A program made the translations under genes and the position numbers. This document shows positions 1-19,416 of a stretch of DNA of 64,000 bases, piece after piece. Each line of letters begins with the position of its first letter. The stretch's first letter is position 1. Origin of the DNA: a virus; the IMG/VR virus record IMGVR_UViG_3300045988_103907, positions 1 through 64,000 of that record. One strand, given 5' to 3'. The notes under the pieces are model-generated. The model was given only the letters and a program-made list of their open reading frames with translations, did no database searches and was not told where the DNA came from.

Positions 1-77
1 GGTAAGACCTCCTGCTTATCTGTGTGAGTTTCAAAATTAGGTATATTATACCTTACTTTCTACTTTTTTTCAAGATG

Positions 78-186
78 GTCTATGCAAATCTCTATAAGTC
101 TATATTTATCGATATTGCGACATTATTTCGAAGTCGTTTTTTGCCATTCCAAAATGGACTCTATGCAAATCTCTGTAAGTCTATAT
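78..186. repeat. Two ~28-nt direct repeats (ATGGnCTATGCAAATCTCT[A/G]TAAGTCTATAT) at ~78-105 and ~156-186, followed by tandem TGGTGTCAAAAT x2 at ~200-223, immediately 3' of the integrase gene
   Basis: Read directly in sequence; position next to the int gene suggests arm-type recombinase binding sites or an att-flanking region. Confidence 0.5.
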
Positions 187-225
187 ATCTTTTGAAGATT
201 TGGTGTCAAAATTGGTGTCAAATAA

Positions 226-1465: not shown

Positions 1466-1660
1466 TCAAACAGAATACGTTTGATCTATATATTTTTCGA
1501 GAGCCTTACGTTTGATAAGACGTTTATTCCCCACCCAAAGTACCAATGGACAGTTTTCATCATCAGTAATCGCTCTTAGTCTGCAGACCCCAATCCCCGT
1601 GTAAGCAGCCGCTTCATTTAACGTCAGGGTCGTCTTTTCCCAAATTGGGACTTCCTTCAT
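1466..1660 (-). CDS. Excisionase-like HTH DNA-binding protein
   Basis: 64 aa, LTLNEAAAYTGIGVCRLRAITDDENCPLVLWVGNKRLIKRKALEKYI resembles excisionase-family HTH; lies directly upstream of int with a 4-nt overlap to the next gene. Confidence 0.55.
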   Translation of the reverse strand: MKEVPIWEKTTLTLNEAAAYTGIGVCRLRAITDDENCPLVLWVGNKRLIKRKALEKYIDQTYSV

Positions 1661-2484
1661 TCAATCACCTCCTCCAGCTTGTGCTCGCCATATTTCGCCA
1701 CACATACATTATAAAGTAGCATGGCACGGGTCATGAGGCCAACTCCGCCGATACGAGGGGTCACCTTGATATCTTCGATGTCATAAACAGCGTCGGAGCA
1801 GTCGCCGTGCTGCTTGCCATTCTCGTCATAGTTGATACCAACATCAATGCAGACATCTGCGTTAAATAAATCTAATGGCGAAATAAAATCGCGTTCCCCA
1901 ACAGCGGAGATCACAACATCTACAAGACCATCGTGAAGAGTATAATAACGAAGAGCGTTACCCGTGCTATTTACAGAGATTACGTTACAGTGCCGCTTAA
2001 TCAGCATATCAACCAGCGGGCGACCTACGATATCAGATTGGCCGCACACGAGCACATTCTTTCCATCCAGATCGTAACCGATAGAATCAAAAATCTTCAT
2101 AACACCCAGTGGAGTGCAAGGCTGAAATGGTGATGTAGAATTAAAACCATCAACGTCAAGTTCGTCTGGAATAATGATATTCTTAGGATTGATATGTTTG
2201 GGCAGTGGCAACTGAACAATGATGCCATCTGCTTCTTCATAAATACGATTCTGCAATATCATTTTATTTAATTCATCTTCAGTCGTTTTCTCTGGTAACT
2301 TGATATATTTTGCTTTAATTTTAACCTCTTCACAATCTCGCAGCTTGCCGCGAATATAAGCATTAGATGCAGGGTTGTCCCCTATTTGATAAATAAGTAA
2401 AACAGGAGCGTAGTCGGCTTTTGCGATAATATTCTTGATTTTATTTTTGATATCTTGTGCGATAGATTTGCAATCAATAATCAT
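1657..2484 (-). CDS. folD: Bifunctional methylene-THF dehydrogenase / methenyl-THF cyclohydrolase (FolD)
   Basis: 275 aa; GIIVQLPLP motif, NAD(P) Rossmann region, overall FolD architecture. Confidence 0.8.
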   Translation of the reverse strand: MIIDCKSIAQDIKNKIKNIIAKADYAPVLLIYQIGDNPASNAYIRGKLRDCEEVKIKAKYIKLPEKTTEDELNKMILQNRIYEEADGIIVQLPLPKHINPKNIIIPDELDVDGFNSTSPFQPCTPLGVMKIFDSIGYDLDGKNVLVCGQSDIVGRPLVDMLIKRHCNVISVNSTGNALRYYTLHDGLVDVVISAVGERDFISPLDLFNADVCIDVGINYDENGKQHGDCSDAVYDIEDIKVTPRIGGVGLMTRAMLLYNVCVAKYGEHKLEEVIE

Positions 2485-2524
2485 TGTGAACCTCCTTTAT
2501 AAAACCCTAATTCTTCCATAAGAA

Positions 2525-2890
2525 TCACCTCGTTACTGTACTAACTCCATTATTTTTAATCTGTCCTTTTTGAACATGAATTATTACAGAGTCAGCATTA
2601 ACAGTATTGGTTGACTTATATTCGATATATGGAGCGTTGCTATCATATACAATTTTTACATGTCCTTTGATATTCATATAAGTGCCATTGCAAAGAACCG
2701 TAAGCATCTCGTAATTTTCTGCTGGGACATTAGATACCATAGTAGATGTATATCCGTAGATGCCCGGTTCCAATTCTTCAATAGTGGCAGTCCACTCAAT
2801 CGGATTATAATGACGATAGATACCGTCGCCAATCGCCCATACAAAATATCCAACAACAAGAGTAATGAGCACACCGACTGTCAAAAACAA
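2525..2890 (-). CDS. Membrane-anchored hypothetical protein (N-terminal TM, extracytoplasmic domain)
   Basis: 121 aa ORF with hydrophobic N-terminus; co-oriented. Confidence 0.4.
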   Translation of the reverse strand: MFLTVGVLITLVVGYFVWAIGDGIYRHYNPIEWTATIEELEPGIYGYTSTMVSNVPAENYEMLTVLCNGTYMNIKGHVKIVYDSNAPYIEYKSTNTVNADSVIIHVQKGQIKNNGVSTVTR

Positions 2891-2920
2891 GATCTTTCTC
2901 CAAGAGTGAGTTTTTCGTTA

Positions 2921-3412
2921 TTACCATCCAAATTCAACACCACTTTCGTTTACAATATAGATGCCGTTGTCTTTCAAATACTCAATAAACTCTTCATGTG
3001 GTAATTTATGGGCGAGCTCACAAATAGTGTAGTTACTTCTGCCTTTCACCCATTTTGTTTCTTTCCTCAAGTTAGACCATTGATGTACACGAAATTTCTT
3101 ACAACGAAATTTTAAATGAAAGGCATCTGCACACAAATCGCAAATTGGTATCTCTACATAAAAGTCACCCGGATAGCGTTTTCTTCGCCACCACTCTATA
3201 TCATAGAATACAATACCATAGAGTTCAGGATAATCTTCAAATCCATGTTCTCTAAGATAAGTAAAACCTAATCCATTGATGGTCCATTCTGGCGACCTTG
3301 GAACTGTATACCGAAGCTGCGATTCTGTATGCGAGATACAGGTATTGTTATATTTTCCATCAATGCCCATAATGTACCAGTTGGATTTATAATAGCCTAT
3401 TTGTTTAGTCAC
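2921..3412 (-). CDS. Hypothetical protein (Trp/Cys-rich)
   Basis: 163 aa ORF, co-oriented, 8-nt overlap with next gene. Confidence 0.4.
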   Translation of the reverse strand: MTKQIGYYKSNWYIMGIDGKYNNTCISHTESQLRYTVPRSPEWTINGLGFTYLREHGFEDYPELYGIVFYDIEWWRRKRYPGDFYVEIPICDLCADAFHLKFRCKKFRVHQWSNLRKETKWVKGRSNYTICELAHKLPHEEFIEYLKDNGIYIVNESGVEFGW

Positions 3413-3866
3413 AACTAATCACCTCCCCCGTATCATCACCCAACGGCCACGTGCATCCATAAAATGTTCCAAAATTTTCGATTTTAAAATAGTACCATTT
3501 TTTCGTCACGTAGTCATAAATACTGTAGCAAGTGCAGCGGCCATCCGGCCAATGGTTCTTTTTAATAGCATCAATATCAAGTTCTAAAAATCGTTTGATT
3601 TCGGATAATTTATATGAAGCAAAAATATAATCCCATGGGCCACGCCAATGGATAAACCACATGTGCTCTACGAAGTTCGGCCATTCTACAGAAAATCGTT
3701 CGACTGGTTTACTTCTGCTAAAATTCTTATATTGAAGAAAATAGTTGCTGATACCGTGTACACCAGTCCAATAATGGTCTTTAGTGCAGATGAAATGAGA
3801 ATAGCTTTCCCATTCTGGATTTTGTATTTCCCAGTGATTCTTTTCGATTGAAAATCTATCGTCCAT
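3405..3866 (-). CDS. Hypothetical protein (Trp-rich)
   Basis: 153 aa ORF, co-oriented. Confidence 0.4.
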   Translation of the reverse strand: MDDRFSIEKNHWEIQNPEWESYSHFICTKDHYWTGVHGISNYFLQYKNFSRSKPVERFSVEWPNFVEHMWFIHWRGPWDYIFASYKLSEIKRFLELDIDAIKKNHWPDGRCTCYSIYDYVTKKWYYFKIENFGTFYGCTWPLGDDTGEVISCD

Positions 3867-3939
3867 TCAATTTACCTCATAAAAGTCTAGTTTTACCGTA
3901 TTTTTTACTTGTTTTTGTAACGATAACACGTTATTTATT

Positions 3940-4350
3940 TTACTTTTTATGTTCCATAAGTTCTTTGATTCGCATTCTGTCATCGAAAATAGACATAAGC
4001 GCGATCATTTTCCATAATTCGAGCTCGGACGCTTCCTCAATGGGCTTACATCCATCTTTTCTTGCTTTGTCTGAAATAGAATCCTTATGAAGCCATCTCC
4101 AAACCTCAACAATACCACATGTTGTGTAACCGTATACTCCAAATAAGTCTGGCATATCATACTCTGCATTATGCCACGGAATCATTTTGATAAGAATATC
4201 CAGAGGGCTGCACTCATATGGATTGAATCCAATGAGATCAGGAATATATCCAAACATACCATGACTCATACTCATTCTTTTATTCTCTTTTGCGTCGGTC
4301 GGCTTTCCGTATTGACAATCACTAATATGAGCTTTCATCTCTTGCACCAT
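3940..4350 (-). CDS. Hypothetical protein
   Basis: 136 aa ORF, co-oriented. Confidence 0.4.
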   Translation of the reverse strand: MVQEMKAHISDCQYGKPTDAKENKRMSMSHGMFGYIPDLIGFNPYECSPLDILIKMIPWHNAEYDMPDLFGVYGYTTCGIVEVWRWLHKDSISDKARKDGCKPIEEASELELWKMIALMSIFDDRMRIKELMEHKK

Positions 4351-4392
4351 CCTTCGATTTTCTCACATACTCTACAAATTGCGTCAAAAAAG

Positions 4393-4776
4393 TCAACTCT
4401 CGTCTGCATTAGAAACAATTTGAAGTACGCTCTCCGCTTCTTTGCGAGCCACCAATCGTTGTTCATATTCTTTGTTTGCGATTCGTTCTTGCTCATGCAA
4501 TTCAAGTCCTTTCAACCAGTAAGATGGGCATTCGTAAATTTTTTCAAGCGTGTTTGCATCGCAAAAGTATTCTCGATCTCTCTTATTGTAATCGTAATAT
4601 CCAATAAACGACAGACCGTAATCGCTTATTACAACGTTGTCTTTTAAAAGGACCGGACGTTCATCCATGACCTTAACCCAACCGAGGAAGTTTTCGCAAG
4701 ATTCTGCGCAACTATCTCTTATTTGCCTTCTATAAGCGCACACTTCTTTATGTAGACATTTACTGCAAATAGCCAT
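4393..4776 (-). CDS. Cys-rich hypothetical protein (start trimmed to internal Met to avoid overlap)
   Basis: CSKCLHKEVCAYRRQIRDSCAESCENF cluster; track ORF 4393..4932 overlaps its upstream neighbour, internal MAICSKC start more plausible. Confidence 0.35.
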   Translation of the reverse strand: MAICSKCLHKEVCAYRRQIRDSCAESCENFLGWVKVMDERPVLLKDNVVISDYGLSFIGYYDYNKRDREYFCDANTLEKIYECPSYWLKGLELHEQERIANKEYEQRLVARKEAESVLQIVSNADES

Positions 4777-5170
4777 TTTTTCTCGCTTTCCAGCAGAAAT
4801 TCTCTGCCCAATCATAAAATAGTTTTGGAATGTCTCGTACACGAGAAACAACTTTATAAAGTAAGGTGTCACTAGACTTGTCTTCATGAGGTTCTTTATA
4901 AATACATTCCCATTTATACTCCCAGAGTTCAACTGTATTATCGTCTTGTGTGCTAATCTTCACTAAAATAGAATGAAGCTTGTCGTTTATACTTACGGAA
5001 GCATGACAATTTTCTTGTTTGAGAGGCCACTCATTTATTTTTGCAAATAAATCAAATGCCCTATCGACTGCCATTTCGAATAATGGTTGTTCATCAGAGC
5101 ACATACATATTCGTTCTATATCCCCATAATGCAGAAGATTTAGTTCCCAAACTTCCATTACGTTCACCAC
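4760..5170 (-). CDS. Hypothetical protein
   Basis: 136 aa ORF, co-oriented. Confidence 0.35.
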   Translation of the reverse strand: MVNVMEVWELNLLHYGDIERICMCSDEQPLFEMAVDRAFDLFAKINEWPLKQENCHASVSINDKLHSILVKISTQDDNTVELWEYKWECIYKEPHEDKSSDTLLYKVVSRVRDIPKLFYDWAENFCWKARKNGYLQ

Positions 5171-5405
5171 ACTTTAAAACATACATTTTAATCGTCAAAA
5201 ATTTCTTCTCGCAGAACCGGTTTATCATGGCTCTCTACACGACTGCTGCATTCTGGACATTGTGTTTGATAAAATAAAATCACATTCAATGACCTCGCAG
5301 CCAAAACACTTTCCGAATCAGACCAAAATTCACAACCACACCCTCATTTAAAATGATATGTAAGTTCTTTTGGGGTCTTCTTATGTTGAATAATTTTAAT
5401 CGCCA

Positions 5406-5738
5406 TTATTCTTCTCCTTCGCTCAGACTCTTCAAGATTTTTTGAATCCTATAATACCTACCGAGTGGTGTCTCAAAAATAGCTCTCAATCGCTCAAAAA
5501 ATGTTGGTTTACCGAACACCTCATTGTAATCTGCAATATCGATTTGTTTAGCGGTTTCTCCACATTCAGGGCAAGCGTATCGCAACTCAAAATTAGCAGC
5601 TGTGGTATAATAGTCTTTATAGATTGAATCAAATGTGTCGTCGGCATAAAAATCACAATGACAATAAGGGCATCTAAATTCAACTGCAAATTTTTGAAGT
5701 TCTGGTTCATGACCATGCTTTACAATCTTAGTCGCCAT
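5406..5738 (-). CDS. Zinc-ribbon hypothetical protein
   Basis: CPYCHC...CPECG cysteine pairs, 110 aa. Confidence 0.4.
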   Translation of the reverse strand: MATKIVKHGHEPELQKFAVEFRCPYCHCDFYADDTFDSIYKDYYTTAANFELRYACPECGETAKQIDIADYNEVFGKPTFFERLRAIFETPLGRYYRIQKILKSLSEGEE

Positions 5739-5746
5739 ATTTCACC

Positions 5747-5995
5747 TCAATCTATAAACACAAACGGGTTGTCAAACGCCCTCTGGAAGTTCATTGCATG
5801 AATCCTATTCTCTTCAGACAAAGCGACCTTGATAATTTCATCGTCGGTATGCGTCTCGTCATATTCTGCCGTGTCGCAAACCTTGTAAATTTTGCCGTCT
5901 TTGTTCTGAAGCAGCATTCCCTTACCAAGTTTTAATGGAGTTGTTTCCTTTTCTTCTCGAATATGTGCTTTCATATATTTATTCTTCCCACCCAC
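5747..5995 (-). CDS. Hypothetical protein
   Basis: 82 aa ORF, co-oriented. Confidence 0.35.
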   Translation of the reverse strand: MGGKNKYMKAHIREEKETTPLKLGKGMLLQNKDGKIYKVCDTAEYDETHTDDEIIKVALSEENRIHAMNFQRAFDNPFVFID

Positions 5996-6011
5996 CCATA
6001 AAATTTACCTT

Positions 6012-6323
6012 TTAATCGAGAGTCACTGCGCCATTCGGCCAGTTACCGGTCATTTCATACCATTCCGTCTGAAGTGCATTCTCCTTTTCCTTTATGCACA
6101 TTTTAACAAAGTCATGGATTTCTTCGTCCTGTGGCCTTTTAAAAGTCCATTGCTCATCCACGAATCCTATATCTTCAAGACACTTGCAGTAGCCAGCAAT
6201 CTCGTTATAAAAGATATGGTCGTATTCACCCAGAAGAGTATGCTCGTCAAACAGCTTTACTTGCCATGCAATTCCAAATGGAGCTTCTTTCTCGGCATAA
6301 GATTCAACCGTATAATACTTCAT
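6012..6323 (-). CDS. Hypothetical protein
   Basis: 103 aa ORF, co-oriented. Confidence 0.35.
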   Translation of the reverse strand: MKYYTVESYAEKEAPFGIAWQVKLFDEHTLLGEYDHIFYNEIAGYCKCLEDIGFVDEQWTFKRPQDEEIHDFVKMCIKEKENALQTEWYEMTGNWPNGAVTLD

Positions 6324-6341
6324 TATGTATTCTCCTTGCGT

Positions 6342-6875
6342 TTACTGCTTTCCGGTAGAACCAAAACCGCCTGCTCCACGCTCAGTTTCGTCCAATTCGG
6401 AAACCTCTTCAAAATCAGCCTGCCAGAACGGAACAACTGCCATCTGAGCAATGCGGTCGCCATGAGTAATCATTTGAGGGATATTGGAATGATTATGTAG
6501 TGCTACGATATATTCTCCACGGTAATCCTGATCACAAATCCCTGTTTTATTCGCAGGTGCAAGCCCCTGTTTCGTTGCCATACCACTGCGAGCATAGATA
6601 GCGACATACCAACCTTCCGGCGGAGCCATCCGCAAACCAGTATGTACCTTAACGGTCTCATGCGGCTGAATCATAATGCAGCGATCACCATTCTTGTTTA
6701 CAATCGTTGCGTCATCAAAACCGATATAGGCGTACAGGTCTGCACAAGCAGCGTTTTTTGAGCCATAAGTCGGCAGATGAGCATCTTCGTGCAGTTTATT
6801 GATTTTAATGTTGGGGCGATACGGCATCCGACTCATGCCATAGCCAAGATTAGTAGTTGCGTTTCCTAAATCCAT
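6342..6875 (-). CDS. dut: dUTP diphosphatase (dUTPase)
   Basis: Motifs ARSG, ICDQDYRGE, GDRIAQM, RGAGGFGSTG; 177 aa. Confidence 0.85.
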   Translation of the reverse strand: MDLGNATTNLGYGMSRMPYRPNIKINKLHEDAHLPTYGSKNAACADLYAYIGFDDATIVNKNGDRCIMIQPHETVKVHTGLRMAPPEGWYVAIYARSGMATKQGLAPANKTGICDQDYRGEYIVALHNHSNIPQMITHGDRIAQMAVVPFWQADFEEVSELDETERGAGGFGSTGKQ

Positions 6876-6876
6876 A

Positions 6877-7422
6877 TTATTTTCCTTTCTCTTCTGGAGT
6901 CCACCAAAGGACTATATTGTCGTATCCAGTAGTTTTCATGCAATCGATAACTCTCTGATTAGAGCTTCCCATATAAGGTAGTGAGATGTCACGTTTTGAT
7001 TCAATATATGAGCCATCCACGATGACATCAATAAGATTTAAAATCATATCGATGTCATCATTTTTATTGAGCGGATTTATCTGGCTTAGTAATTCTTCAT
7101 AGGTATATCCAGTCCACATCCAGATGTCTTTTTTATCTCCAAACTCAACTAAGACTTTATAAATAATATCACTGATTGTTTCTCGATTTTCTGGATATAA
7201 CGGATCTCCGCCCGTGAGCGTCAACCCTTGAATATAATCAGGCCGAAGCAGCTCAATTAGTTCGTCTAGCGTTTCTTCTGTGAATGGCTGACCTGCGTTT
7301 GGGTCCCATGTCTGTGGATTATGACAACCGGGGCAATGATGGTTACATCCCGCGCAGAATAACGTGACTCTTACGCCCGGACCATTTGCTATATCACATG
7401 GGACAATCTTCATATAATTCAT
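6877..7422 (-). CDS. nrdG: Anaerobic ribonucleoside-triphosphate reductase activating protein (radical SAM)
   Basis: CAGCNHHCPGCHNPQTW cluster; start moved to MNYMKIVPCD, preceded by GAGGGAA RBS (read on the minus strand). Confidence 0.8.
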   Translation of the reverse strand: MNYMKIVPCDIANGPGVRVTLFCAGCNHHCPGCHNPQTWDPNAGQPFTEETLDELIELLRPDYIQGLTLTGGDPLYPENRETISDIIYKVLVEFGDKKDIWMWTGYTYEELLSQINPLNKNDDIDMILNLIDVIVDGSYIESKRDISLPYMGSSNQRVIDCMKTTGYDNIVLWWTPEEKGK

Positions 7423-7831
7423 CAATGTTCCCTCGTGCTTTATTGATTTTATTTGCGGCAGCTTTCGCATCACTTTCTGTATCATAGATATTACGAATGT
7501 AATACTCAAAATCAGGATCGATGTTGTCGCTAATATCAAATCCTTCTAATTGAATAGACTCTTCCGCTATTATCAAATTGTCATCTTTTTCAAGTCTTGC
7601 ACCGATATTCACTCTCTTGACTTTACATTTTTTGATTCGATATACGTCTTTTACGATCTTTTTATATCCAAGGCAGATAGGACAACGATATTTCTTCTGA
7701 GTGCCATCAATGAATGTTATGTTCACATTTCCGTCAACATCACATTTATTACAATTTTTATCAGCATTCTCTCGCTCAATAATCCATGCAAAGCTTCCGG
7801 GAACGTGCTTTAAATTAAAGCTAGTATCCAT
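7394..7831 (-). CDS. Cys-rich hypothetical protein
   Basis: 145 aa, CNKCDVDGN...CPICLGYKK. Confidence 0.4.
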   Translation of the reverse strand: MDTSFNLKHVPGSFAWIIERENADKNCNKCDVDGNVNITFIDGTQKKYRCPICLGYKKIVKDVYRIKKCKVKRVNIGARLEKDDNLIIAEESIQLEGFDISDNIDPDFEYYIRNIYDTESDAKAAANKINKARGNIDELYEDCPM

Positions 7832-7832
7832 T

Positions 7833-8039
7833 TTAAATCACCTTTGTCCATAGACTCACACATACGATAATAAGAATATTCAGTGCAACGACAGTCCACT
7901 TTACATATTTAAGTTTGATGTCATACATTACAGTATTACATAAGAAATCGTATAGAATTTCTTCAGAGCGGATAATTGCTGCCGTAAGAATTAAAATAAA
8001 ATACGATTCAACAAGAAGCCAAGCAATCTCAGTCAACAT
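7833..8039 (-). CDS. Small membrane protein
   Basis: 68 aa, two hydrophobic segments. Confidence 0.3.
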   Translation of the reverse strand: MLTEIAWLLVESYFILILTAAIIRSEEILYDFLCNTVMYDIKLKYVKWTVVALNILIIVCVSLWTKVI

Positions 8040-8313
8040 CGATTAACACCTCCTCGACAGGAATAATCCGACCATCAACGTAGTAGCATATCTGACCGTG
8101 CTCATTATAATAAGGAGACATATAGCCATTATATATCATGTAGTACATAATCTTTGTATCTCGCTCATACACGATTGGGGAATTTCCAAGTCTGTAGAAA
8201 TATTTATACTCATCAACTGTTTCATTCCCATATGTATCAGTATCTGAACATCCAGTTAGCATAATCGCTGCTAAAAGTACGCATACGGCAGTATTTTTGA
8301 AAGTCTTAAACAT
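8029..8313 (-). CDS. Putative lipoprotein
   Basis: Internal start MFKTFKNTAVCVLLAAIMLTGCSD (signal peptide + LTGC lipobox), AAAGGA RBS upstream of that ATG. Confidence 0.45.
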   Translation of the reverse strand: MFKTFKNTAVCVLLAAIMLTGCSDTDTYGNETVDEYKYFYRLGNSPIVYERDTKIMYYMIYNGYMSPYYNEHGQICYYVDGRIIPVEEVLIDVD

Positions 8314-8341
8314 ACTTTTCCTTTCTAATAAAAGCGGAATT

Positions 8342-8644
8342 TTAGTTATTATGTCCACGCCATTCTTGTATTCTTTCGCACCATTCCTGTATGTCTTCGC
8401 TGTCATAAAAACAGCTTATAATTGCCACTCCGCAGATCATACCAATAAACGAAGACATCATTGCCAACAAAGCAGCTATCATACTATTCCTCCACTTGTG
8501 TAAATCATCACTGTAAAAATCACAAAAAGAATCGCTGCACTGGCTGGAATTGAAAACGAATGCTGTAACACAATGCCGCAGATTACGCTTATAATCGTAA
8601 ACACAATGGTCGTGCAAACATACGATTGCCCCATGGCTAACCAA
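8342..8644 (-). CDS. Small membrane/Cys-rich hypothetical protein
   Basis: 100 aa ORF with C-terminal hydrophobic segment. Confidence 0.3.
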   Translation of the reverse strand: MVSHGAIVCLHDHCVYDYKRNLRHCVTAFVFNSSQCSDSFCDFYSDDLHKWRNSMIAALLAMMSSFIGMICGVAIISCFYDSEDIQEWCERIQEWRGHNN

Positions 8645-8679
8645 ACTATCATATTCTATCTCCTAGAACGGCACTTTTA

Positions 8680-8901
8680 TCAAAATCTCAAATAACTCCA
8701 ATAATCAGTGTATAGAAGTTTTGCGCTTACGTCTGGCTCGTAAAAAGCAAGTGGATGTTCGCGATAGAATCCTTGACGAACAAAGTCCGTTGCCTCATTC
8801 TCGCTCTCGGCAGGAATCTCGTAGTATGAAAAACTACGTTCACCATTAGCCATTAAGTACGATAAGCTTACGCCATATACATGTGTTTGCCCGTAATTCA
8901 T
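8680..8901 (-). CDS. Hypothetical protein
   Basis: 73 aa, co-oriented. Confidence 0.3.
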   Translation of the reverse strand: MNYGQTHVYGVSLSYLMANGERSFSYYEIPAESENEATDFVRQGFYREHPLAFYEPDVSAKLLYTDYWSYLRF

Positions 8902-9110
8902 TACTTGTCCCTCTTTTTACGATACATTGTAACAGTATACGGTTCATAACCATCTTCTTCCGTCCAGTCCAAACTAAAACCAGCACGTTGGTAGACTTCC
9001 ATCTCAATTTGTTTTTCTGTCATATTGTCATCAACATAGAATTCAAAATTACAGTCTTCAAATCCTTTTGCTTTTAGAACTCCTGTGATTTTTTTCATAA
9101 TGCACCCCAC
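8901..9110 (-). CDS. Hypothetical protein
   Basis: 69 aa, co-oriented. Confidence 0.3.
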   Translation of the reverse strand: MGCIMKKITGVLKAKGFEDCNFEFYVDDNMTEKQIEMEVYQRAGFSLDWTEEDGYEPYTVTMYRKKRDK

Positions 9111-9239
9111 TTTTCACGACCGCAGGTATCACAGATAAAGTGCCACTTATCATGCCAGCTATGAGTGCTATCGTAAAGCATAACACCGCCACATCTACTG
9201 CATTCGGGAAGAAACCAATGGAGTAGACGTTTCAAGAGT

Positions 9240-9599
9240 TTAGCAATCATTCTTACTCTTTCTCCACAATCCGTGCTTTTTCATAATCTCGAAGAAATCT
9301 TCCATAAGAGCATCGGCCATCTTACCAGAGATTTCAGGAAGGTCTAAACCAAAATCTCTAAAAGCACAATGTAAACAACCCCATGGAGTTAAAGCAAATT
9401 TTTCATAAAACTCATCTTCAGGATTGCTTTCTTTTGAGTCTAACATATTCGTCTCGTACTCAAACTGTCTCACTTCATTCTTTGTGAGCCATTTCTGCCA
9501 CTTACCACAAACAGAGCAATACAGACCAATCTGGCTACCTTTGCTCTGGATAAAGAAAGATTTACTGCCACACTTACATTTGAAGTCCATCTCAGCCAC
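9240..9599 (-). CDS. Zinc-ribbon hypothetical protein
   Basis: CKCGSKSFF...CSVCGKWQKW; 119 aa. Confidence 0.4.
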   Translation of the reverse strand: MAEMDFKCKCGSKSFFIQSKGSQIGLYCSVCGKWQKWLTKNEVRQFEYETNMLDSKESNPEDEFYEKFALTPWGCLHCAFRDFGLDLPEISGKMADALMEDFFEIMKKHGLWRKSKNDC

Positions 9600-9792
9600 C
9601 TGCCTTTTCTACATTCTGAACCATGCAGCTCATACCGGGATGAGATTTTTCAAAACGATAATGTGCTTTGTTCATAGCATCATTTTGATCCGGTGCTTTA
9701 ACCATATATGTATTGAATGCCTGATGTCCATCATCATAGTACATTACTTCAACAGACCAATAATCCATATAGCTCCCTTCATGCCACCACAC
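9592..9792 (-). CDS. Hypothetical protein
   Basis: 66 aa, co-oriented. Confidence 0.3.
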   Translation of the reverse strand: MWWHEGSYMDYWSVEVMYYDDGHQAFNTYMVKAPDQNDAMNKAHYRFEKSHPGMSCMVQNVEKAGG

Positions 9793-9832
9793 CCACCCCC
9801 GCTAGTTAGTTTACTTGCTTCGACTGCCCTTA

Positions 9833-10044
9833 ATGAAGCACTCAAGCAAAATAAGAGCCAACCAAATACCTGTCGCGATCTTGACCGTAAAAGTGATGTT
9901 TAACAGCTTAAAAATCAGCCAGATAATACCAATCGTGGTAATCCACGAAATAAAGTAAGTTAAGGCAAGAAATAAAACGGTTCCAAGAAAAGAACCAAGT
10001 GCCTTAAAGAAATTCTTCCACGCTTCTATTCCAATTACCTTCTT
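9833..10044 (-). CDS. Orphan two-TM membrane-protein coding region with no canonical start (ends ...LLECFIKGSRSK), in frame directly after the TGA stop of the upstream gene
   Basis: Translated by hand: KKVIGIEAWKNFFKALGSFLGTVLFLALTYFISWITTIGIIWLIFKLLNITFTVKIATGIWLALILLECFIKGSRSK; strong TM character; no ATG/GTG/TTG in frame. Confidence 0.3.
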
Positions 10045-10266
10045 TCAATCATTCTCGATATGGACACAAGCCGGAATAACCATCTCAGAGTTGTATAAAT
10101 GTACGAGACCCCCATCTTTAAGCACTACCGCATTCACGTAGCAATTATTTTCTATTATAGTAGAAACTTTCATACACAGTGTTTTATTATTTCCGTAATA
10201 AAACGGAGCGCCTTGATCGATACATTCGAATTCTATCGGCTCATATCTACTTTCAAAAATTTTCAT
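10045..10266 (-). CDS. Hypothetical protein (ends at TGA that is in frame with the downstream TM-coding region)
   Basis: 73 aa ORF. Confidence 0.35.
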   Translation of the reverse strand: MKIFESRYEPIEFECIDQGAPFYYGNNKTLCMKVSTIIENNCYVNAVVLKDGGLVHLYNSEMVIPACVHIEND

Positions 10267-10267
10267 T

Positions 10268-10543
10268 TTATAGCTCCTCTTTGATGCACTGATTAGTCAG
10301 CTTTTCATATACATCCTCGTAAAGCTCCTGCTTGTCGCCGTTATAGGTATACTCTGCATAGATGCCGTCACCGCTAATGGTGGTGGACAGCAGAGCCTTA
10401 TAGTTCTGGAGAGTTTTGCAGCCCCAGACCACAAAAACGTTTTCCAGCGTAATTTCATCGGACGTATGCTCATAGTACCACTTGACAAGAGCATTCTTAC
10501 AAACACTTTCGAAGTGAGCCATACCTGTAATAATCATAATCAA
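10268..10543 (-). CDS. Hypothetical protein
   Basis: 91 aa, co-oriented. Confidence 0.3.
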   Translation of the reverse strand: MIMIITGMAHFESVCKNALVKWYYEHTSDEITLENVFVVWGCKTLQNYKALLSTTISGDGIYAEYTYNGDKQELYEDVYEKLTNQCIKEEL

Positions 10544-11031
10544 GTCTCCTTTTTGAATATAACCGTAATCCAGTTATCTGGATAATCATCTTCTTCCTTT
10601 GTTGTTTTCACATATCCGGGCATTTCAAAATTCCACGCAAGATAATTTAGAATTTCAAGGTTGTGTAAATCGCAATAATACCAGTCCCATGGTCTACTCC
10701 ATTCCGACCAATGAAGAAGATATGCATTATCACGGCAAGTAAGATAAAAACTATTGTCCAAAGTACACACGCTGCACACTTTTGGAAACGCATGTCTTAG
10801 GATACGGTCAGTTCGCTTATCGCTCCACTTATTCAACTTCTTGCGACGGAACCTCTCTGCGACAACAAAGAGTCTCTCAAGCCAGTAGATAATGATAAGA
10901 ATCGGATACAGAAACCAATAAGGTGTTTTAATGTTCATGTCCTTGTAATGATAGTATTTTGTGACCTTGGTTTCTTTCTTCTTTTCTTCTTGCAGCTTCT
11001 TACTAAGTCTGTCCATATTTAATCCCACCAA
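10540..11031 (-). CDS. Membrane hypothetical protein
   Basis: 163 aa with internal hydrophobic helix. Confidence 0.35.
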   Translation of the reverse strand: MVGLNMDRLSKKLQEEKKKETKVTKYYHYKDMNIKTPYWFLYPILIIIYWLERLFVVAERFRRKKLNKWSDKRTDRILRHAFPKVCSVCTLDNSFYLTCRDNAYLLHWSEWSRPWDWYYCDLHNLEILNYLAWNFEMPGYVKTTKEEDDYPDNWITVIFKKET

Positions 11032-11066
11032 CCCACCCTGCTTTTATTCCATCAATAAGATGCTAC

Positions 11067-11918
11067 TTACTCACCCTTAGTTACAACGGTGTCAGCACCC
11101 TGTACAGTTACCCAGCCATGCTTCAAACGTGCCTCTGCTTCCTTCATCTGAATCAGTTCAGGAGTGATGGACTCGGAAAGTACCTTATTTGCATCAGCCT
11201 CAGCCTGTGCCTCAATCATCTTAACGTCAGCTTCCGTCTGAGCCTTGACCTTATCAGTTTCGGCCTGAGCCAGAGCGGTCTGCTTGTTCAGTTCGGCAAT
11301 CTCCGCATCCTGCTTGGCCTGCTCCTTAGCACGAATCTTCTGCATCAGGGTATCGTCCGGCTGTGCATCAACAATCAGAGCAGAAGAGACATTGATACCA
11401 TATTCGGCGGTCAGCTTCTCATTTAGGTAATTAGTGATTGCGGTATTCACACCTGCTCGATCATCAGAATAAATCTGCATGACACTAAACTGAGGAGTCA
11501 CTTCCTTGACATAAGCAATAATGTCATTCTGAATCTTGCTCTCCATAAGGCTCTCGCCGTCCATGCCACCAAACTTGGTATACAGCTCAACGACATGTTC
11601 AGGCAGGAAATTATAGTTTACAGTCAGATTGATTGCAATCGTACCGCCATTTGCAGGAGCATCAATATGCCAGTCTGCGTGCTCCTTTGCACCGTAATCA
11701 GATGCTGCATTAGAAAAGACTACTCGCTGCTGAGTAATCGGGAACTCAGACACATGCTTTAGAGGACTCATAAAATGCCAGCCCTGAGAAATAGTCTGCT
11801 GCTCGACCCCCTTCGCGGAATAAACAACACCAACATAACCAGTATGTACCCGCTCGGTACAAAGCACTGCGCCAATTGCAACGAGGAACGCAACAAAAAT
11901 TGCCATAAATTTCTTCAT
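11067..11918 (-). CDS. SPFH/band-7 (prohibitin/HflK-like) membrane protein
   Basis: N-terminal anchor, SPFH core, C-terminal coiled coil AKEQAKQDAEIAELNKQ... Confidence 0.7.
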   Translation of the reverse strand: MKKFMAIFVAFLVAIGAVLCTERVHTGYVGVVYSAKGVEQQTISQGWHFMSPLKHVSEFPITQQRVVFSNAASDYGAKEHADWHIDAPANGGTIAINLTVNYNFLPEHVVELYTKFGGMDGESLMESKIQNDIIAYVKEVTPQFSVMQIYSDDRAGVNTAITNYLNEKLTAEYGINVSSALIVDAQPDDTLMQKIRAKEQAKQDAEIAELNKQTALAQAETDKVKAQTEADVKMIEAQAEADANKVLSESITPELIQMKEAEARLKHGWVTVQGADTVVTKGE

Positions 11919-12040
11919 AAATATCTCCTTAATCTTTATAGTTGTCTTTCAGAATGTAATAGGCGATAACCCATACAATCACGAAGAAAACAATGATTTC
12001 TTTCATATGTAACCCCACCAACCCACCGCTTATACATTAT

Positions 12041-14242
12041 TTAGTTGTCGCTCAAATGAACCACTCGATCTCGAATTTCCTGAGTGCGCCCCTGATTCCA
12101 AAAATTGGTTCCCAGGTAACCGCAGGTACGTCTTACGACATTCATTTTGTTCTGGTCACGATTACCACAATTCGGGCACTCCCATACAAGCTTGTGGTTT
12201 TTCTCATCTTCTACAATTTTAATTTCGCCGTCGTAACCACAGCACTGGCAGTAGTCGGACTTGGTGTTCAGCTCCGCATACATGATGTTGTCGTAAATGA
12301 ACTGCATAACACTAAGCACCGCAGGAATGTTCTGCTGCAGATTTGGCACCTCGATATAGCTAATCGCTCCTCCGGGAGAAAGCTTCTGGAACTCGCTCTC
12401 AAACTTTAGCTTAGTGAAAGCATCGATATGTTCACGGACAACGACATGATAAGAATTTGTTACGTAGTCATGGTCAGTAACATCTGGAATCATACCGAAC
12501 CGCTTCTGCAAGCAACGTGCAAATTCATATGTAGTGGACTCCAAAGGAGTACCATACAGGGAGTAATCGATGTTTTCAGCGGCCTTCCACTCGTTACACT
12601 TATCATTCATGTGCTGCATAATTTCGAGAGCGAAAGGTTTAGCATCAGGATCGGTGTGGCTCTTGCCGGTCATATACTTCACACACTCATACAGACCGGC
12701 ATAGCCCAGGCTGATGGTGGAATAGCCGCCGAAGAGTAACTTGTCGATCTTCTCGCCCTTCTTTAGACGAGCTAATGCACCGTACTGCCACAGGATAGGG
12801 GCCATATCAGAAGGAGTGCCGAGTAGACGCTTGTGACGAATCTGTAGAGCTCGATGACACAATTCGAGTCGTTCATCGAAGATTTTCCAGAATTTATCCT
12901 TGTCCCTTTTTGAACTGCAAGCCACATCTACCAGATTGATAGTTACCACACCCTGGTTAAAGCGGCCATAATACTTATGCCCCTTAACCCAATTCTTGGC
13001 ATTAGCTACGTTCTCAGTGGTGCGGTCAGGAGTAAGGAAGGATCTACAGCCCATGCTAGGCCACACACCGCCTTTAAGCTCCTTCATAACCTTTGCGGAA
13101 ATATAATCAGGAACCATTCGCTTGGCAGTACACTTAGCCGCCAGCTCAGTCAGGTAATAATACTTAGAATCAGGATGAATGTTATCCTCATCAAGAGCAT
13201 AAATGAGCTTTGGGAAGGCCGGAGTAACCCATACACCAACTTCATTCTTTACACCCTGAATGCGCTGTTTTAACACTTCTTCAACAATTAGAGCTAAATC
13301 ATCACGAGTCTGACCTTCTGGAACTTCATCGAGATACATGAACACGGTGATAAAGGGGGCCTGACCATTGGTGGTCATCAAAGTGACGACCTGATACTGG
13401 ATGGTCTGCACGCCACGAGCAATTTCTTTATGTAAACGCTCTTCTACAATTCGATTGATAGTTTCAGACTCCGGCATCTTATCGATTTCATTATTCTGAA
13501 CCATCTCGTAAAATTCTTGGTGTACTTCACTTGTAATCTTCTTGCGGGAAACATCCACGAATGGAGCCAGATGTGAAAGTGTAATACTCTGACCTCCAAA
13601 TTGCATCGAAGCCACCTGTGCGATGATCTGGGTCGCAATATTGCAGGCCGTGGAAAAGCTGTGGGGCTTTTCGATATAGGTGCCGGAGATGACAGTGCCG
13701 TTCTGGAGCATATCTTCCAGATTGACCAGATCGCAATTATGGCAGTGCATCACAAAATAATCTTTATCATGCACATGAATTAAACCATTTTTGTGTGCAT
13801 CTCGGATATCCTTTGGAAGTAGAAGTCTGTCAGTTAGTTCCTTAGATACCTCTCCGGCCATGTAATCACGTTGCGTGCTATTGATGGTTGCGTTCTTATT
13901 ACTATTTTCCTGATTGATTGCGTCGTTCTGGGCATCAAGAATTTCAAGAATACTTGCGTTGGTTTTCTCTTTATCTCGAATTTCCTGACGATACTGTCGC
14001 CACTGACTATATGCATCTGCAACATCGATGAACGGGCTATTTGCTAGACTGTCCACTACGATATCCTGAATCTGCTCAACAGAAAGAATGTCCGGCATGT
14101 CTGCGATATAGTCAGCAATCGCATTCGACACACGAGCGTCGATACCACCCGGCGTACAGGTCATCGCCTTCTCAATCGCATTTACAATCTTACTTTTGTC
14201 AAAAGGAACTTTCGTTCCGTTTCGTTTAATCACATAATCCAT
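12041..14242 (-). CDS. nrdD: Anaerobic ribonucleoside-triphosphate reductase (class III RNR)
   Basis: N-terminal ATP-cone (VIKRNGTKVPFDKSKI), C-terminal Zn site CPNCGN and glycyl-radical motif RTCGYLG; 733 aa. Confidence 0.9.
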   Translation of the reverse strand: MDYVIKRNGTKVPFDKSKIVNAIEKAMTCTPGGIDARVSNAIADYIADMPDILSVEQIQDIVVDSLANSPFIDVADAYSQWRQYRQEIRDKEKTNASILEILDAQNDAINQENSNKNATINSTQRDYMAGEVSKELTDRLLLPKDIRDAHKNGLIHVHDKDYFVMHCHNCDLVNLEDMLQNGTVISGTYIEKPHSFSTACNIATQIIAQVASMQFGGQSITLSHLAPFVDVSRKKITSEVHQEFYEMVQNNEIDKMPESETINRIVEERLHKEIARGVQTIQYQVVTLMTTNGQAPFITVFMYLDEVPEGQTRDDLALIVEEVLKQRIQGVKNEVGVWVTPAFPKLIYALDEDNIHPDSKYYYLTELAAKCTAKRMVPDYISAKVMKELKGGVWPSMGCRSFLTPDRTTENVANAKNWVKGHKYYGRFNQGVVTINLVDVACSSKRDKDKFWKIFDERLELCHRALQIRHKRLLGTPSDMAPILWQYGALARLKKGEKIDKLLFGGYSTISLGYAGLYECVKYMTGKSHTDPDAKPFALEIMQHMNDKCNEWKAAENIDYSLYGTPLESTTYEFARCLQKRFGMIPDVTDHDYVTNSYHVVVREHIDAFTKLKFESEFQKLSPGGAISYIEVPNLQQNIPAVLSVMQFIYDNIMYAELNTKSDYCQCCGYDGEIKIVEDEKNHKLVWECPNCGNRDQNKMNVVRRTCGYLGTNFWNQGRTQEIRDRVVHLSDN

Positions 14243-14254
14243 GTGATTCCTCCT

Positions 14255-15778
14255 TTACTCAACGTTCTGTGCGTTGTTATTCTCGGAAGTGATAGTAGAA
14301 TCACTTACAAGATTTACATTCTTAGTAACCTTGGCATCGTAACTGTTGGCACGTACAATCTCTCGCATATCAATGCCAGTGGCTTCCTTAACAGCCTCAA
14401 AAGTCTGTGCCATGACCGCCGGGACATTCCCAGAAATCTCAGAAACGCCATTTGCGTTACCGCCGATAATGGAAACCTTATCAATAGATGCCAGAGGCTT
14501 TGCAACCTGTTCTGCGATACTAGGCAGAATTTTAATGATCATCTCGCCCATTGCAGCACCGTTATACTGTTTGTAAGCCTCAGCCTTCTTCAGCATAGCC
14601 TCTGCTTCGGCAATACCCTTCTGCTTGATAGCATCTGCTTCAGCAGTACCAACCATTCGGATACCTTCAGCTTCCTGCTCCTTAGCAAACTTGGCAGACT
14701 CGGCAGCACGCTCTGCCTCGTACTTCTTTGCCTCAGCTTCCTTTTGACGCTTATACAGGTCTGCATCAGCCTGTTTGCGAATTTCAGCGTCCAACTTCTG
14801 CTGACGAACCTCTGCTTCCTGAGCGGCCAGTTCAACCATCTTTTTCTGTTTTGCAATCTCTGCATCAGCCTCAGCTTCCTTGATTTCCTTGGCACGAAGA
14901 TTCATCTGAATTTGACCAGCAGCTTCAGCATCAGCGGTCGCCTTGTCAGCTTTAGTCTTCAGAGCAGCCTGTGCCAGGACGAACTCATTGTTGCGTTGCG
15001 CAATAGCAGTCTTAGATTCAATTTCCTTCTCGTTTGCTTCGCGAGTAGTATCAGCCTTAGCGCGAGCAATATCACGAGCTGCTTCAGCCTTAGCAATCTC
15101 TGCCTGCTTCTTCACCAACTCTTCCTGCTGAACACCAATTGCCTCGATGACACCATGATTATGACCCTGAGCATCAATAGCATCCTTGATATCCTGAACA
15201 TTGAAAGTAACAACTTCCAGACCCATCTTTGCCAGATCAGGACGAGCATTCTCAACGACGGAAATTGCCATCTGCTTACGATTAGTCAGGATATCGTTGA
15301 CAGTCATCTCAGAAACAATCTCTCGCAGATTGCCCTGAAGGACATCATTGATCTTCTCGTTAATGCCATCTTCACTCATGCCAAGGAAGTTGGAAATAGC
15401 AGCCTGCTGACGAGCACTAATGTAAGTCTTTGCATCCTCGCAACCGGCGCTCTTAATCTCATCATCAGTTACAGTAGAGTTTTCAGAGTAAACCTGAACA
15501 GTAACAACAGAGTCCAGCCACAGAGAAACACCCTCTTTAGTCTTAACACCTGTTTCAGGAGTCTTAACATCAATCTTAAGCAGTCGCATATTTAGACGGT
15601 CAGCTCGCTGAATAACCGGAAGGACGAACACGCCACGACCACAGATAACTTTTGGCTTAGACAGCCCAAAACCTGTCACGACGATTGCCTGAGTAGGAGG
15701 AGCCTTCTTGTAGCAAGTAAATGCAAAGGCGACCAGAAGGACAATAACGACAGGAATTGCAATAAACATCATATTCAT
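14255..15778 (-). CDS. Flotillin-like SPFH protein (FloT/YqiK family)
   Basis: N-terminal TM, SPFH domain, long Ala/Glu/Lys-rich coiled coil; 507 aa. Confidence 0.75.
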   Translation of the reverse strand: MNMMFIAIPVVIVLLVAFAFTCYKKAPPTQAIVVTGFGLSKPKVICGRGVFVLPVIQRADRLNMRLLKIDVKTPETGVKTKEGVSLWLDSVVTVQVYSENSTVTDDEIKSAGCEDAKTYISARQQAAISNFLGMSEDGINEKINDVLQGNLREIVSEMTVNDILTNRKQMAISVVENARPDLAKMGLEVVTFNVQDIKDAIDAQGHNHGVIEAIGVQQEELVKKQAEIAKAEAARDIARAKADTTREANEKEIESKTAIAQRNNEFVLAQAALKTKADKATADAEAAGQIQMNLRAKEIKEAEADAEIAKQKKMVELAAQEAEVRQQKLDAEIRKQADADLYKRQKEAEAKKYEAERAAESAKFAKEQEAEGIRMVGTAEADAIKQKGIAEAEAMLKKAEAYKQYNGAAMGEMIIKILPSIAEQVAKPLASIDKVSIIGGNANGVSEISGNVPAVMAQTFEAVKEATGIDMREIVRANSYDAKVTKNVNLVSDSTITSENNNAQNVE

Positions 15779-15794
15779 GTATTTTTCTCCTTGA

Positions 15795-15884
15795 TTATTT
15801 TAAAACAAATTTGGCAAAGCCAAAAAACAACATTGTAACAAACAGGGCGAATGCCGCAAATGGTTCTTCCCAGTTGTATCTCAT
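15795..15884 (-). CDS. Small hydrophobic peptide (MRYNWEEPFAAFALFVTMLFFGFAKFVLK) immediately upstream of flotillin
   Basis: AAGAGG RBS 8 nt upstream of ATG; below ORF-track size threshold. Confidence 0.3.
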   Translation of the reverse strand: MRYNWEEPFAAFALFVTMLFFGFAKFVLK

Positions 15885-15897
15885 ATATGTAAACCTC

Positions 15898-16338
15898 TTA
15901 GAATTTGACTTCATCGGCACAATCAGGAACCACGGCAGTCTCAATGTTTGGAGCATGAATCTCTGGACAGAAAACCAAATCATCCGTATAGTCAGGCTTT
16001 GCATGACGAGGAATGTAATCCGGCATCGTAGTCAGCTTGTCAGTTACCTCGTTAGGAATCTTCTTTAGCGTATCTACGACACTTTCAGCAACTTTCTGCT
16101 GTTCCTCTAAAAGTCGGATTTTATAGTCCAAATACCAACGTGCCTTCGTTAAATCTTGAAGCAGAGAATTGCCATCCTTGTGCCCTGCACGGCTCAGATA
16201 CTTACCAGTGTTCCAAAGATAAGCATCCTTGTCCAATCCCCATTCATGAAGCACCTTAATTGCTTCATACGGATTATCTGCGCCTCCGTAGTGGGAAGGA
16301 TGGTCTGTATTTTTCTTGATGTCATCAAGTGTTTCCAT
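15898..16338 (-). CDS. DUF3310-like phage protein
   Basis: HPSHYGG...PYEAIKVLHEWGL...KYLSRAG signature recalled from DUF3310 family. Confidence 0.45.
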   Translation of the reverse strand: METLDDIKKNTDHPSHYGGADNPYEAIKVLHEWGLDKDAYLWNTGKYLSRAGHKDGNSLLQDLTKARWYLDYKIRLLEEQQKVAESVVDTLKKIPNEVTDKLTTMPDYIPRHAKPDYTDDLVFCPEIHAPNIETAVVPDCADEVKF

Positions 16339-17116
16339 TTAAAGCCTCCTGTTTCAGTTTGTCGTATTTATCACGAATCTCGTGGAACTTACCACAAGAC
16401 ATCATTCCTTCAGTACAACCATTACCACAGCAGTTGGGGCCAGCATACTTAAACAGATGAGGAGCAATCGGATAAACCAGCTTTAACATCTCGGTTGCAA
16501 GCTCCCTGATTTCCGGCTGCGCTCGCTCACAACAACGCAGGTTAAAGAAATTATTCAACGAACGAGCGTTCATTGTAACAATCATCTTTGTAGAACAAGC
16601 ATTTGGAAGAACAGAACGTGCATTCTCGTTTGCAATCTTGGACGCTTTTGCGCGTGCCTTTTTCTCAGTCAAACGAGAATCAGCAACCATCAGTTCCTCA
16701 GTAATCTTGTCCTCAAGAATCTGACATAGGTGCTTATAGGAATATTCAGCAGTCTGAATTGCCTGTTCAAACACTTCTCGTGCTTCGCTATCCTCATCAA
16801 TAACATCAGGAATGATGATTTCTGCATTATTCATTCGCACATAGCGCTGACTCTGCACACTAAATGACGCAATGCGGTGGCGGGTTATCTGAGCAAGCAA
16901 AGAACGGCTCACACTTTCGATTCCAAAAGTAAAAGTCACATGTTCAGTAGGACTGGCGTGACCAAGGCTAGAAAGTCGATTCAAAAATTCATCGACCTTC
17001 TCATCGGTCAGTCCATCCATCAAATCCTGAATACTCGAATTGGAATAGCACAGCTTTGCAGCGGCAGCTACCACCTTTTCAGGATCAGGAGTATGTGCAA
17101 TCAGTTCAACAGTCAT
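16325..17116 (-). CDS. thyX: Flavin-dependent thymidylate synthase
   Basis: ThyX motif RHRIASFSVQSQRY; 263 aa. Confidence 0.85.
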   Translation of the reverse strand: MTVELIAHTPDPEKVVAAAAKLCYSNSSIQDLMDGLTDEKVDEFLNRLSSLGHASPTEHVTFTFGIESVSRSLLAQITRHRIASFSVQSQRYVRMNNAEIIIPDVIDEDSEAREVFEQAIQTAEYSYKHLCQILEDKITEELMVADSRLTEKKARAKASKIANENARSVLPNACSTKMIVTMNARSLNNFFNLRCCERAQPEIRELATEMLKLVYPIAPHLFKYAGPNCCGNGCTEGMMSCGKFHEIRDKYDKLKQEALNGNT

Positions 17117-19407: not shown

Positions 19408-19416
19408 TGTAAAGCC

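Follow-up and report, generated by a model that had tools for sequence, protein, structure and literature searches.

The stretch of DNA analysed here, 64,000 nucleotides (nt) covering positions 1 to 64,000 of the IMG/VR virus record IMGVR_UViG_3300045988_103907 and called the window from here on, contains a group of five genes for deoxynucleotide and folate metabolism, one of which is a viral folD. We propose that the region with these genes serves a large temperate phage of Faecalibacterium as its nucleotide-precursor block, that this phage has inserted into the promoter region of a host carboxyltransferase operon, and that the enzymes of the block would together form a supply pathway for deoxythymidine triphosphate (dTTP); these propositions, taken jointly, we regard as rather probable. 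The source phage is at least 132 kb long, so that about 70 kb of it lie outside the analysis, and two ENA contigs from the human gut, of 140,045 bp (ERZ920094 k127_94550) and 132,261 bp, match the window at 100% identity. Every gene in the window lies on one strand (minus). The features on which the argument rests are the following.

1..76, no strand: left prophage junction; 1-52 is host DNA (5' leader and -10 box of the Faecalibacterium carboxyltransferase operon), with the attachment site (att) crossover at about 53-76
79..222, no strand: direct repeats between the junction and int, from a repeat search; 27-nt copies at 79-105 and 160-186, 11-nt copies at 200-210 and 212-222
226..1392, minus: int, tyrosine integrase with a Tn916-type N-terminal DNA-binding domain (Pfam Phage_integrase 118 bits, Integrase_DNA 68 bits)
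1466..1660, minus: xis, Tn916-type excisionase (Pfam Tn916-Xis 76.5 bits), its start codon overlapping the folD stop (ATGA)
1657..2484, minus: folD, predicted bifunctional 5,10-methylene-tetrahydrofolate (THF) dehydrogenase / 5,10-methenyl-THF cyclohydrolase, compact, 275 amino acids (aa) (Pfam, PHROG 7320, PDB matches, AlphaFold2 model)
6342..6875, minus: dut, trimeric-type dUTPase, dUTP to dUMP (Pfam dUTPase, PF00692, 73.5 bits; PHROG 135, E 3e-57)
6877..7422, minus: nrdG, radical S-adenosylmethionine (SAM) activase of class III ribonucleotide reductase (RNR) (Pfam Fer4_12 164.5 bits, Radical_SAM; PHROG 626)
12041..14242, minus: nrdD, class III anaerobic ribonucleoside-triphosphate reductase with N-terminal ATP-cone (Pfam NRDD, PF13597, 640.8 bits, ATP-cone, Gly_radical)
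15898..16338, minus: DUF3310 protein, its start overlapping the thyX stop by 14 nt (Pfam DUF3310; PHROG 236 'nucleotide kinase', E 8e-19)
16325..17116, minus: thyX, flavin-dependent thymidylate synthase (Pfam Thy1, PF02511, 231.5 bits)

Gene identities and the prophage junction

An earlier note on this DNA had named the same five genes, folD, dut, nrdG, nrdD and thyX, at these positions, and Pfam, PHROG and the catalytic motifs agree with it: all five proteins pass the curated Pfam cut-offs, the PHROGs are concordant, and all five predicted enzymes are intact. FolD is, by homology and by its structural model, a dehydrogenase/cyclohydrolase for which both activities are predicted. Both of its domains score above the cut-off (THF_DHG_CYH, PF00763, 86.9 bits; THF_DHG_CYH_C, PF02882, 116.5 bits), it matches the FolDs of the PDB with E 1e-37, and the model (pLDDT, the predicted local distance difference test, 92.3) gives Foldseek TM scores of 0.83-0.89 to FolD/MTHFD structures. 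The catalytic residues Y43/K47/Q91/D112 align to Y50/K54/Q98/D121 of the E. coli enzyme and are invariant across a 34-sequence FolD alignment, and the dinucleotide loop GxSxxVGxP is present as GQSDIVGRP. The phage protein thus shares with cellular FolD (E. coli 1B0A/5O28; the human MTHFD1/2 domain) the two-domain fold, the catalytic Tyr/Lys/Gln/Asp and this loop, but it is only 30-36% identical to them, its loop after DVDGF is about 10 residues shorter, and HRF of E. coli is replaced by NST. The window's own protein is annotated as FolD by JGI, while alleles 83-86% identical to it are entered in NCBI nr as 'MAG TPA ... [Caudoviricetes sp.]'.

The remaining four enzymes carry the motifs expected of their families. 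In Dut, motifs 3 and 5 were the ones checked, and they read DxxYxGE (GICDQDYRGEY) and GFGSTG (RGAGGFGSTG); dut starts 1 nt after the nrdG stop. NrdG has the cluster motif CNHHCPGC (CxxxCxxC type), and its ATG start at 7422, giving 181 aa, agrees with the gene call on the source contig and not with a longer, mechanically listed TTG open reading frame (ORF). NrdD matches PDB 9d3x with E 5e-120 and T4 NrdD with 2e-100, and possesses the glycyl-radical motif RRTCGYLG, the active-site loop SMGCRSF and a four-Cys zinc site (CQCCG...CPNCG). The ThyX motif RHR(X)7S is present as RHRIASFSVQS. The DUF3310 protein is a candidate nucleotide (dTMP) kinase, which is unproven, as the PHROG label is weak and could not be firmed up; its homologues in deposited phages are mostly annotated 'hypothetical', and in the related contig L001 (MT835556.1) the homologue lies about 0.8 kb from thyX.

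The position of these genes on a prophage follows from its left end. We recovered the empty insertion locus in eight Faecalibacterium genomes or contigs, GCA_046979045.1 being an example of an assembly that holds it, where a pseudouridine synthase gene and the carboxyltransferase gene are separated by a 146-nt spacer. Window positions 1-52 are identical to all eight empty sites and identity ends at position 53 (63 in two strains), and because it breaks there the prophage boundary and att lie at about 53-76, outside int and xis and 1.6 kb from folD. The identical junction is present in three independent assemblies. The earlier note had taken folD to be phage-borne and named an att site between 1392 and 1657 as the opposing case; we looked for one, and the att region was found instead at the place just described, outside int. 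Another assembly, in which the phage part is the same as window 1-3495, has as flank protein exactly the RefSeq protein 'MULTISPECIES carboxyl transferase [Faecalibacterium]', and the host is therefore Faecalibacterium, a strict anaerobe. A strictly anaerobic host had been deduced in the earlier note from the class III RNR; the conclusion holds, but the inference is invalid, as the Enterococcus phage VRE9_2, whose host is facultative, carries nrdD and nrdG as well. The guanine plus cytosine (GC) content makes a step of 16-20 points at the junction, the window having a mean of 40.8%, the host flanks 57-63% and F. prausnitzii 56.3-57.2%.

A defined junction, empty sites and int and xis are thus all found for the window itself, and a head-maturation protease follows just past it in relatives. 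No virion genes were found within the 64-kb window; past its end, as far as one step through IMG/VR relatives reaches, these encode an anti-repressor, the head-maturation protease and PhoH on a divergent arm, with the main structural block and attR beyond reach.

Comparison of window 1-76 with positions 2855-3000 of the empty sites (contigs L108-L115) places the insertion point between the -35 and -10 boxes of the host carboxyltransferase promoter. The promoter of the empty site reads TTGAGA-17 nt-TATAAT, while in the lysogen the phage end gives TTGAAA-17 nt before the same TATAAT, with 11 of 12 consensus matches. Since the phage end supplies a replacement -35 box, the host operon is probably still expressed in the lysogen. 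A phage-like variant of the spacer, GAAAGTAAGG, is present in two host strains and is possibly the scar of an earlier excision. The direct repeats at 79-222 are likely candidates for arm-type Int/Xis binding sites, and doubled motifs of an analogous kind follow int in two related contigs, L005 and L006.

Conservation and origin of folD

At least 563 contigs in IMG/VR encode relatives of this FolD, and the best 80 of them, all in one clade with 77-91% identity, were examined. They are mostly 100-150 kb long, with folD usually about 2.3 kb from the provirus end and with dut and nrdG upstream of it in 76 of the 80. The integrase that adjoins folD is, by contrast, of at least four unrelated types, and across the window and the contigs L001, L004, L005 and L006 three Faecalibacterium insertion loci are used, upstream of the carboxyltransferase gene, groES and an Asp23-like gene. 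The flank proteins of L006 are exactly Faecalibacterium YloU and NusB; this contig (CAKUYO010000131.1) is binned as 'uncultured Bacteroidales', a label which, given these identical flank proteins, is wrong for the contig. The GC content of folD is 41.2% and its GC at third codon positions (GC3) 40%, the same as the phage average. Because the boundary lies outside int and xis, the composition is phage-like and the layout is kept across integrase types and host loci, folD is a stable part of the phage's cargo, beside an integration module that is swapped.

The gene is also under purifying selection. Its ORF is intact in 78 of the 80 relatives, the remaining two being cut at contig ends; the ratio of nonsynonymous to synonymous substitution rates (dN/dS) against the window allele has a median of 0.15 (range 0.085-0.27), and the catalytic residues are retained in 63-64 of 64 clade alleles. 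ThyX was found in every relative whose fetched flank was long enough, in the form of two alternating alleles that are only 32% identical, and its constant presence although the alleles are swapped points to selection on its function and not to linkage. The gene set is conserved across the phage lineage. The FolD clusters found at 82-100% identity number more than 120, and an allele of the P0018/P0115 type occurs in NCBI genomes. One peculiarity was seen in the nrdD of L001 (positions 13126-16472), a continuous ORF of 1000 aa with an in-frame, intein-like insertion of about 290 aa after residue ~170, whose last 24 codons lie about 280 nt further downstream; Rfam gave no group I intron there.

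An exhaustive homologue search of 1.84 billion cluster representatives returned, after the clade (81% and 61%), matches that are 41-51% identical and mostly short (258-293 aa), the best relatives outside the clade being 41-61% identical. The ten best representatives outside the clade are metagenomic, on contigs of at most 103 kb; nine come from metagenome assemblies only, and the cluster of the tenth also has a member from NCBI, truncated, on a contig of 1.8 kb. The two that were examined are phage-borne, one on a siphovirus-like contig of about 52 kb and the other on an SPbeta-like contig. Many of the nearest relatives have the deletion of about 10 residues after DVDGF, and solved cellular FolDs are 30-36% identical. 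That the nearest relatives are only 41-61% identical, are phage-borne where examined and commonly have the short loop argues for a long residence of folD in viruses over a recent capture from Faecalibacterium.

Two routes of capture were considered and rejected. Acquisition from a nearby host folD fell away when the folD-like blastn match turned out to belong to another contig, L002 (MT835745.1), and not to the flank of L001, where the gene is a guanylate kinase. Aberrant excision does not agree with the location of folD on the inner side of int and xis, its phage-like composition and its deep divergence. In two other phage lineages folD is directly followed by IS200/IS605-type genes: in L002 (150-2418) by a TnpB-like ORF of 440 aa, and in L008 (10001-12396) by a Y1 transposase and OrfB. 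This association might be a mark of how folD moves between phages.

The proposed pathway and the alternatives

A class III RNR reduces nucleoside triphosphates (NTPs), which makes dUTP its direct product, and ThyX releases THF and not dihydrofolate. On this basis NrdD, activated by NrdG, would reduce UTP and the other NTPs directly to deoxynucleoside triphosphates; Dut would hydrolyse dUTP to dUMP; ThyX would methylate dUMP to dTMP with 5,10-methylene-THF as carbon donor, releasing THF; the DUF3310 protein may begin the phosphorylation of dTMP; and FolD would join the methylene-THF pool to the methenyl- and 10-formyl-THF pools. The THF released by ThyX could in this way be recharged from host 10-formyl-THF, made from formate by the formate-THF ligase of the host, beside the host serine route. 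Since ThyX releases THF no dihydrofolate reductase (DHFR) is needed, and none was found in the window. The whole pathway, with the coupling of FolD and ThyX, is put together from established enzymology, which also agrees with the remark in the earlier note that the pair is metabolically coherent, and it shares the estimate given at the outset with the identity of the block.

The same note had called the module self-contained, and this description does not hold. Precomputed Pfam matches for the genes called in 1-64000 include no serine hydroxymethyltransferase, formate-THF ligase, glycine-cleavage, thymidylate kinase or dCMP deaminase family, and the DUF3310 protein is the only candidate kinase. 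Ten small ORFs at 17127-20086 have no Pfam match and hence add no nucleotide genes. With no such family called in the window, the host would have to provide the one-carbon donor, the reductants and the last phosphorylation steps.

A reason for such a module may lie in the difference in base composition. The phage is 59% A+T and its host about 43%, which amounts to about 1.4 times more dTTP per base synthesised. According to a published study (PMC7360928), F. prausnitzii is an auxotroph for most of the B vitamins and is missing a larger number of vitamin-pathway genes than most of the other butyrate producers in the test. As phage and host differ in composition, and as the reported auxotrophy of the host fits too, it is probable that the module raises dTTP supply for a 41% GC phage in a host of about 57% GC. 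The phage also encodes a group of tRNAs:

38488-40472: seven phage tRNAs, Leu-UAA, Leu-UAG, Leu-CAA, Gln-UUG, Pro-UGG, Gly-UCC and Met-CAU

The first six decode UUA, CUA, UUG, CAA, CCA and GGA, codons that occur 3-20 times more often in the phage than in the host genes sampled, so that the mismatch is visible in translation too. At 92 nt and 90 nt the tRNA-Met and the tRNA-Gln are longer than usual, and the three Leu tRNAs were missed by the Rfam tRNA model at its gathering score.

As for expression, the folD stop overlaps the xis start by 4 nt and only 40 nt separate folD from the gene upstream. No terminator was found in window 1-8000. Promoter-like sites are no commoner than in shuffled sequences and none falls in the 40-nt gap, although a consensus scan is weak evidence. 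An Rfam scan of the whole window gave tRNAs only, with no ZTP, THF or cobalamin riboswitch. Because it points the same way as the genes around it and its translation is coupled to that of xis, folD is most likely expressed with early or induction genes and not as an independent lysogenic-conversion gene.

Several points weigh against these proposals. The pathway rests on the genes of the phage, the host's own content of folD, fhs, glyA and thyA/thyX being outside the comparison, and the 64 kb covered are part of at least 132 kb, so that genes for one-carbon donors could be elsewhere in the phage. FolD runs towards 10-formyl-THF in many bacteria, and the direction of flux in infected cells is not readable from sequence. 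The HRF-to-NST replacement falls at the site that binds the 2'-phosphate of NADP, where cofactor preference is not callable from an alignment. Finally, a promoter inside the ORF upstream of folD could escape a consensus scan.

The direction of flux leads to the nearest competing explanation, namely that during infection FolD works mainly forward and provides 10-formyl-THF for purines (dATP/dGTP) and for formylation of initiator Met-tRNA, the recharging of methylene-THF for ThyX not being its main task. The reaction can run both ways and the forward one is the customary housekeeping direction, an AT-rich genome needs extra dATP too, and the phage invests heavily in translation, with seven tRNAs, including one with a CAT anticodon, and a polynucleotide kinase (PNK)/RNA-ligase repair enzyme. 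Against this, no purine-pathway or formyltransferase gene is present among the called genes of the window, and folD accompanies thyX through the lineage and ThyA with DHFR in Enterococcus phages. We consider a mainly forward role rather doubtful, and the two roles are not mutually exclusive. It is less likely still that folD is a lysogenic-conversion gene, or moron, in line with the moron position named in the earlier note, expressed from the prophage and aiding the one-carbon metabolism of Faecalibacterium. The integrase-proximal end of a prophage is a frequent place for conversion genes and the reported vitamin auxotrophy of the host would suit such a role. However, the short upstream gap, the absence of a terminator and of a convincing promoter of its own, and the phage-average GC and GC3 speak against it, as does the overlap with xis, since excisionase is normally silent in lysogens; the nearest outgroup FolDs are, moreover, situated in replication or early regions of other phages and not beside an integrase.

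A last group of readings, in which the folD region belongs to the host flank or to a chimeric assembly, or the element is an integrative conjugative element, is highly improbable and largely refuted. Int and Xis of the Tn916 type are typical of conjugative elements, the window has no virion genes and GC jumps at the junction, but the junction recurs in the three independent assemblies and its empty site is known from eight genomes or contigs, folD is 1.6 kb inward from the boundary and is kept at three insertion sites, genes for an anti-repressor, a head-maturation protease and PhoH follow just past the window in relatives, and close FolD alleles are labelled 'Caudoviricetes sp.' by NCBI, with at least 80 relatives in IMG/VR. 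Returning to the recharging of methylene-THF for ThyX, a more far-reaching version of it can be formulated. FolD and ThyX would then constitute a phage-encoded closed THF cycle, a core trait of a widespread lineage of low-GC temperate Faecalibacterium phages of about 130-150 kb; the cycle would be fed by host formate, perhaps also the reductant of NrdD, and would over-produce dTTP for a 41% GC genome in a 57% GC host with its reported auxotrophy for most B vitamins, with the short-loop FolD belonging to an old virus-specific clade with altered cofactor use. Taken as a whole this is speculative, and we put it forward tentatively as a possibility.

Known systems, other phage genes and biological meaning

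T4-type gene sets (td, frd, nrdAB, nrdDG, dCTPase/dUTPase, cd) likewise provide their own ribonucleotide reduction and dUMP and thymidylate synthesis, with a class III RNR and its activase as here, but they have no FolD, use ThyA and DHFR and belong to virulent phages of a facultatively anaerobic host, in which nrdDG is thus also carried. Closer to the present case are the Enterococcus phages VRE9_2 (PP680568) and EF1/EF5, with FolD of PHROG 7320, which like this phage have FolD in a nucleotide block with NrdD, NrdG and a thymidylate synthase, a genome of about 140 kb and a tRNA cluster; in VRE9_2 FolD, ThyA with DHFR and NrdD/NrdG lie within 15 kb. They differ in that their FolD is about 32% identical, they are virulent on a facultatively anaerobic host, and folD lies away from an integrase. 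That VRE9_2 pairs ThyA with DHFR whereas the window has ThyX without DHFR fits the logic of the folate products. In the Chinese Gut Virus Catalogue K01491 (methylene-THF dehydrogenase), K03465 (ThyX) and K00560 (ThyA), all of folate metabolism, are among the 50 most frequent viral auxiliary metabolic genes (AMGs) (PMC11938785), although these are catalogue-level counts with no lineage, host, gene context or mechanism. The statement in the earlier note that folD is uncommon in phages is right in number, since 54 out of 50,697 phage records in GenBank have it and several of the 54 are fragments of a doubtful kind, but such a gene was already known from PHROG 7320, from lists of gut-virus AMGs and from cultured phages. 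In the literature we found no experimental study of a phage FolD, and nothing on phage FolD with ThyX or on Faecalibacterium prophages with an anaerobic RNR. Phage FolD and NrdDG/thymidylate-synthase modules are already on record; the annotation is correct and useful, and the discovery incremental.

The carrier is less ordinary. Described Faecalibacterium phages (Lagaffe, Mushu, Lugh, Taranis, Epona, Toutatis, Brigit, Oengus and the lytic FP01) infect the same genus and are 31-56 kb long. FP01 encodes ThyX, as here, and, being the only described one with a reported GC, has a host-like 57.6% and no tRNAs. The present lineage, in contrast, has at least 132 kb, 41% GC, seven tRNAs, FolD and a class III RNR; it is temperate, abundant in public metagenomes and absent from the descriptions of Faecalibacterium phages that we found.

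Some other genes deserve mention. Two genes for SPFH/Band-7 membrane-scaffold proteins flank nrdD within the nucleotide block, at 11067-11918 and 14255-15778; the first is 97-100% conserved in 29 relatives and the second is flotillin-like, with 507 aa. The window also encodes a Pol III alpha-type polymerase, DnaB, a primase, RecJ, an ExoV/RecD-like helicase and an ATP-dependent ligase. In window 40539-46411, adjoining the tRNA cluster, is a fused polynucleotide kinase / phosphatase / RNA ligase of 736 aa, a neighbourhood which suggests tRNA repair, and PemK-toxin and GmrSD_N domains occur in called genes near it. Beyond the terminal Tn916-type int, two more tyrosine-recombinase-like genes lie inside the phage, at 42884-43810 and 50255-51124, one matching PHROG 216 (integrase) with E 8e-41 and the other PHROG 5830 with E 2e-12; they are candidates for a resolvase, an invertase or a second integration system. 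In contig L095 a stretch of about 2.3 kb without called genes (1132-3461, about 4.6-7 kb past the right end of the window) separates the long leftward block from the divergent arm and is possibly a regulatory switch or origin region.

Faecalibacterium is among the most abundant and health-associated bacteria of the human colon, and it is host to a lineage of large prophages, foreign in composition and common in gut metagenomes, that always has folD, dUTPase and the class III RNR activase, and has a thymidylate synthase wherever the flank reaches. If the explanation by dTTP supply holds, this virus would offset the mismatch in base composition with its host at two levels, that of precursors, through thyX, dut and folD, and that of translation, through tRNAs for A/U-ending codons.

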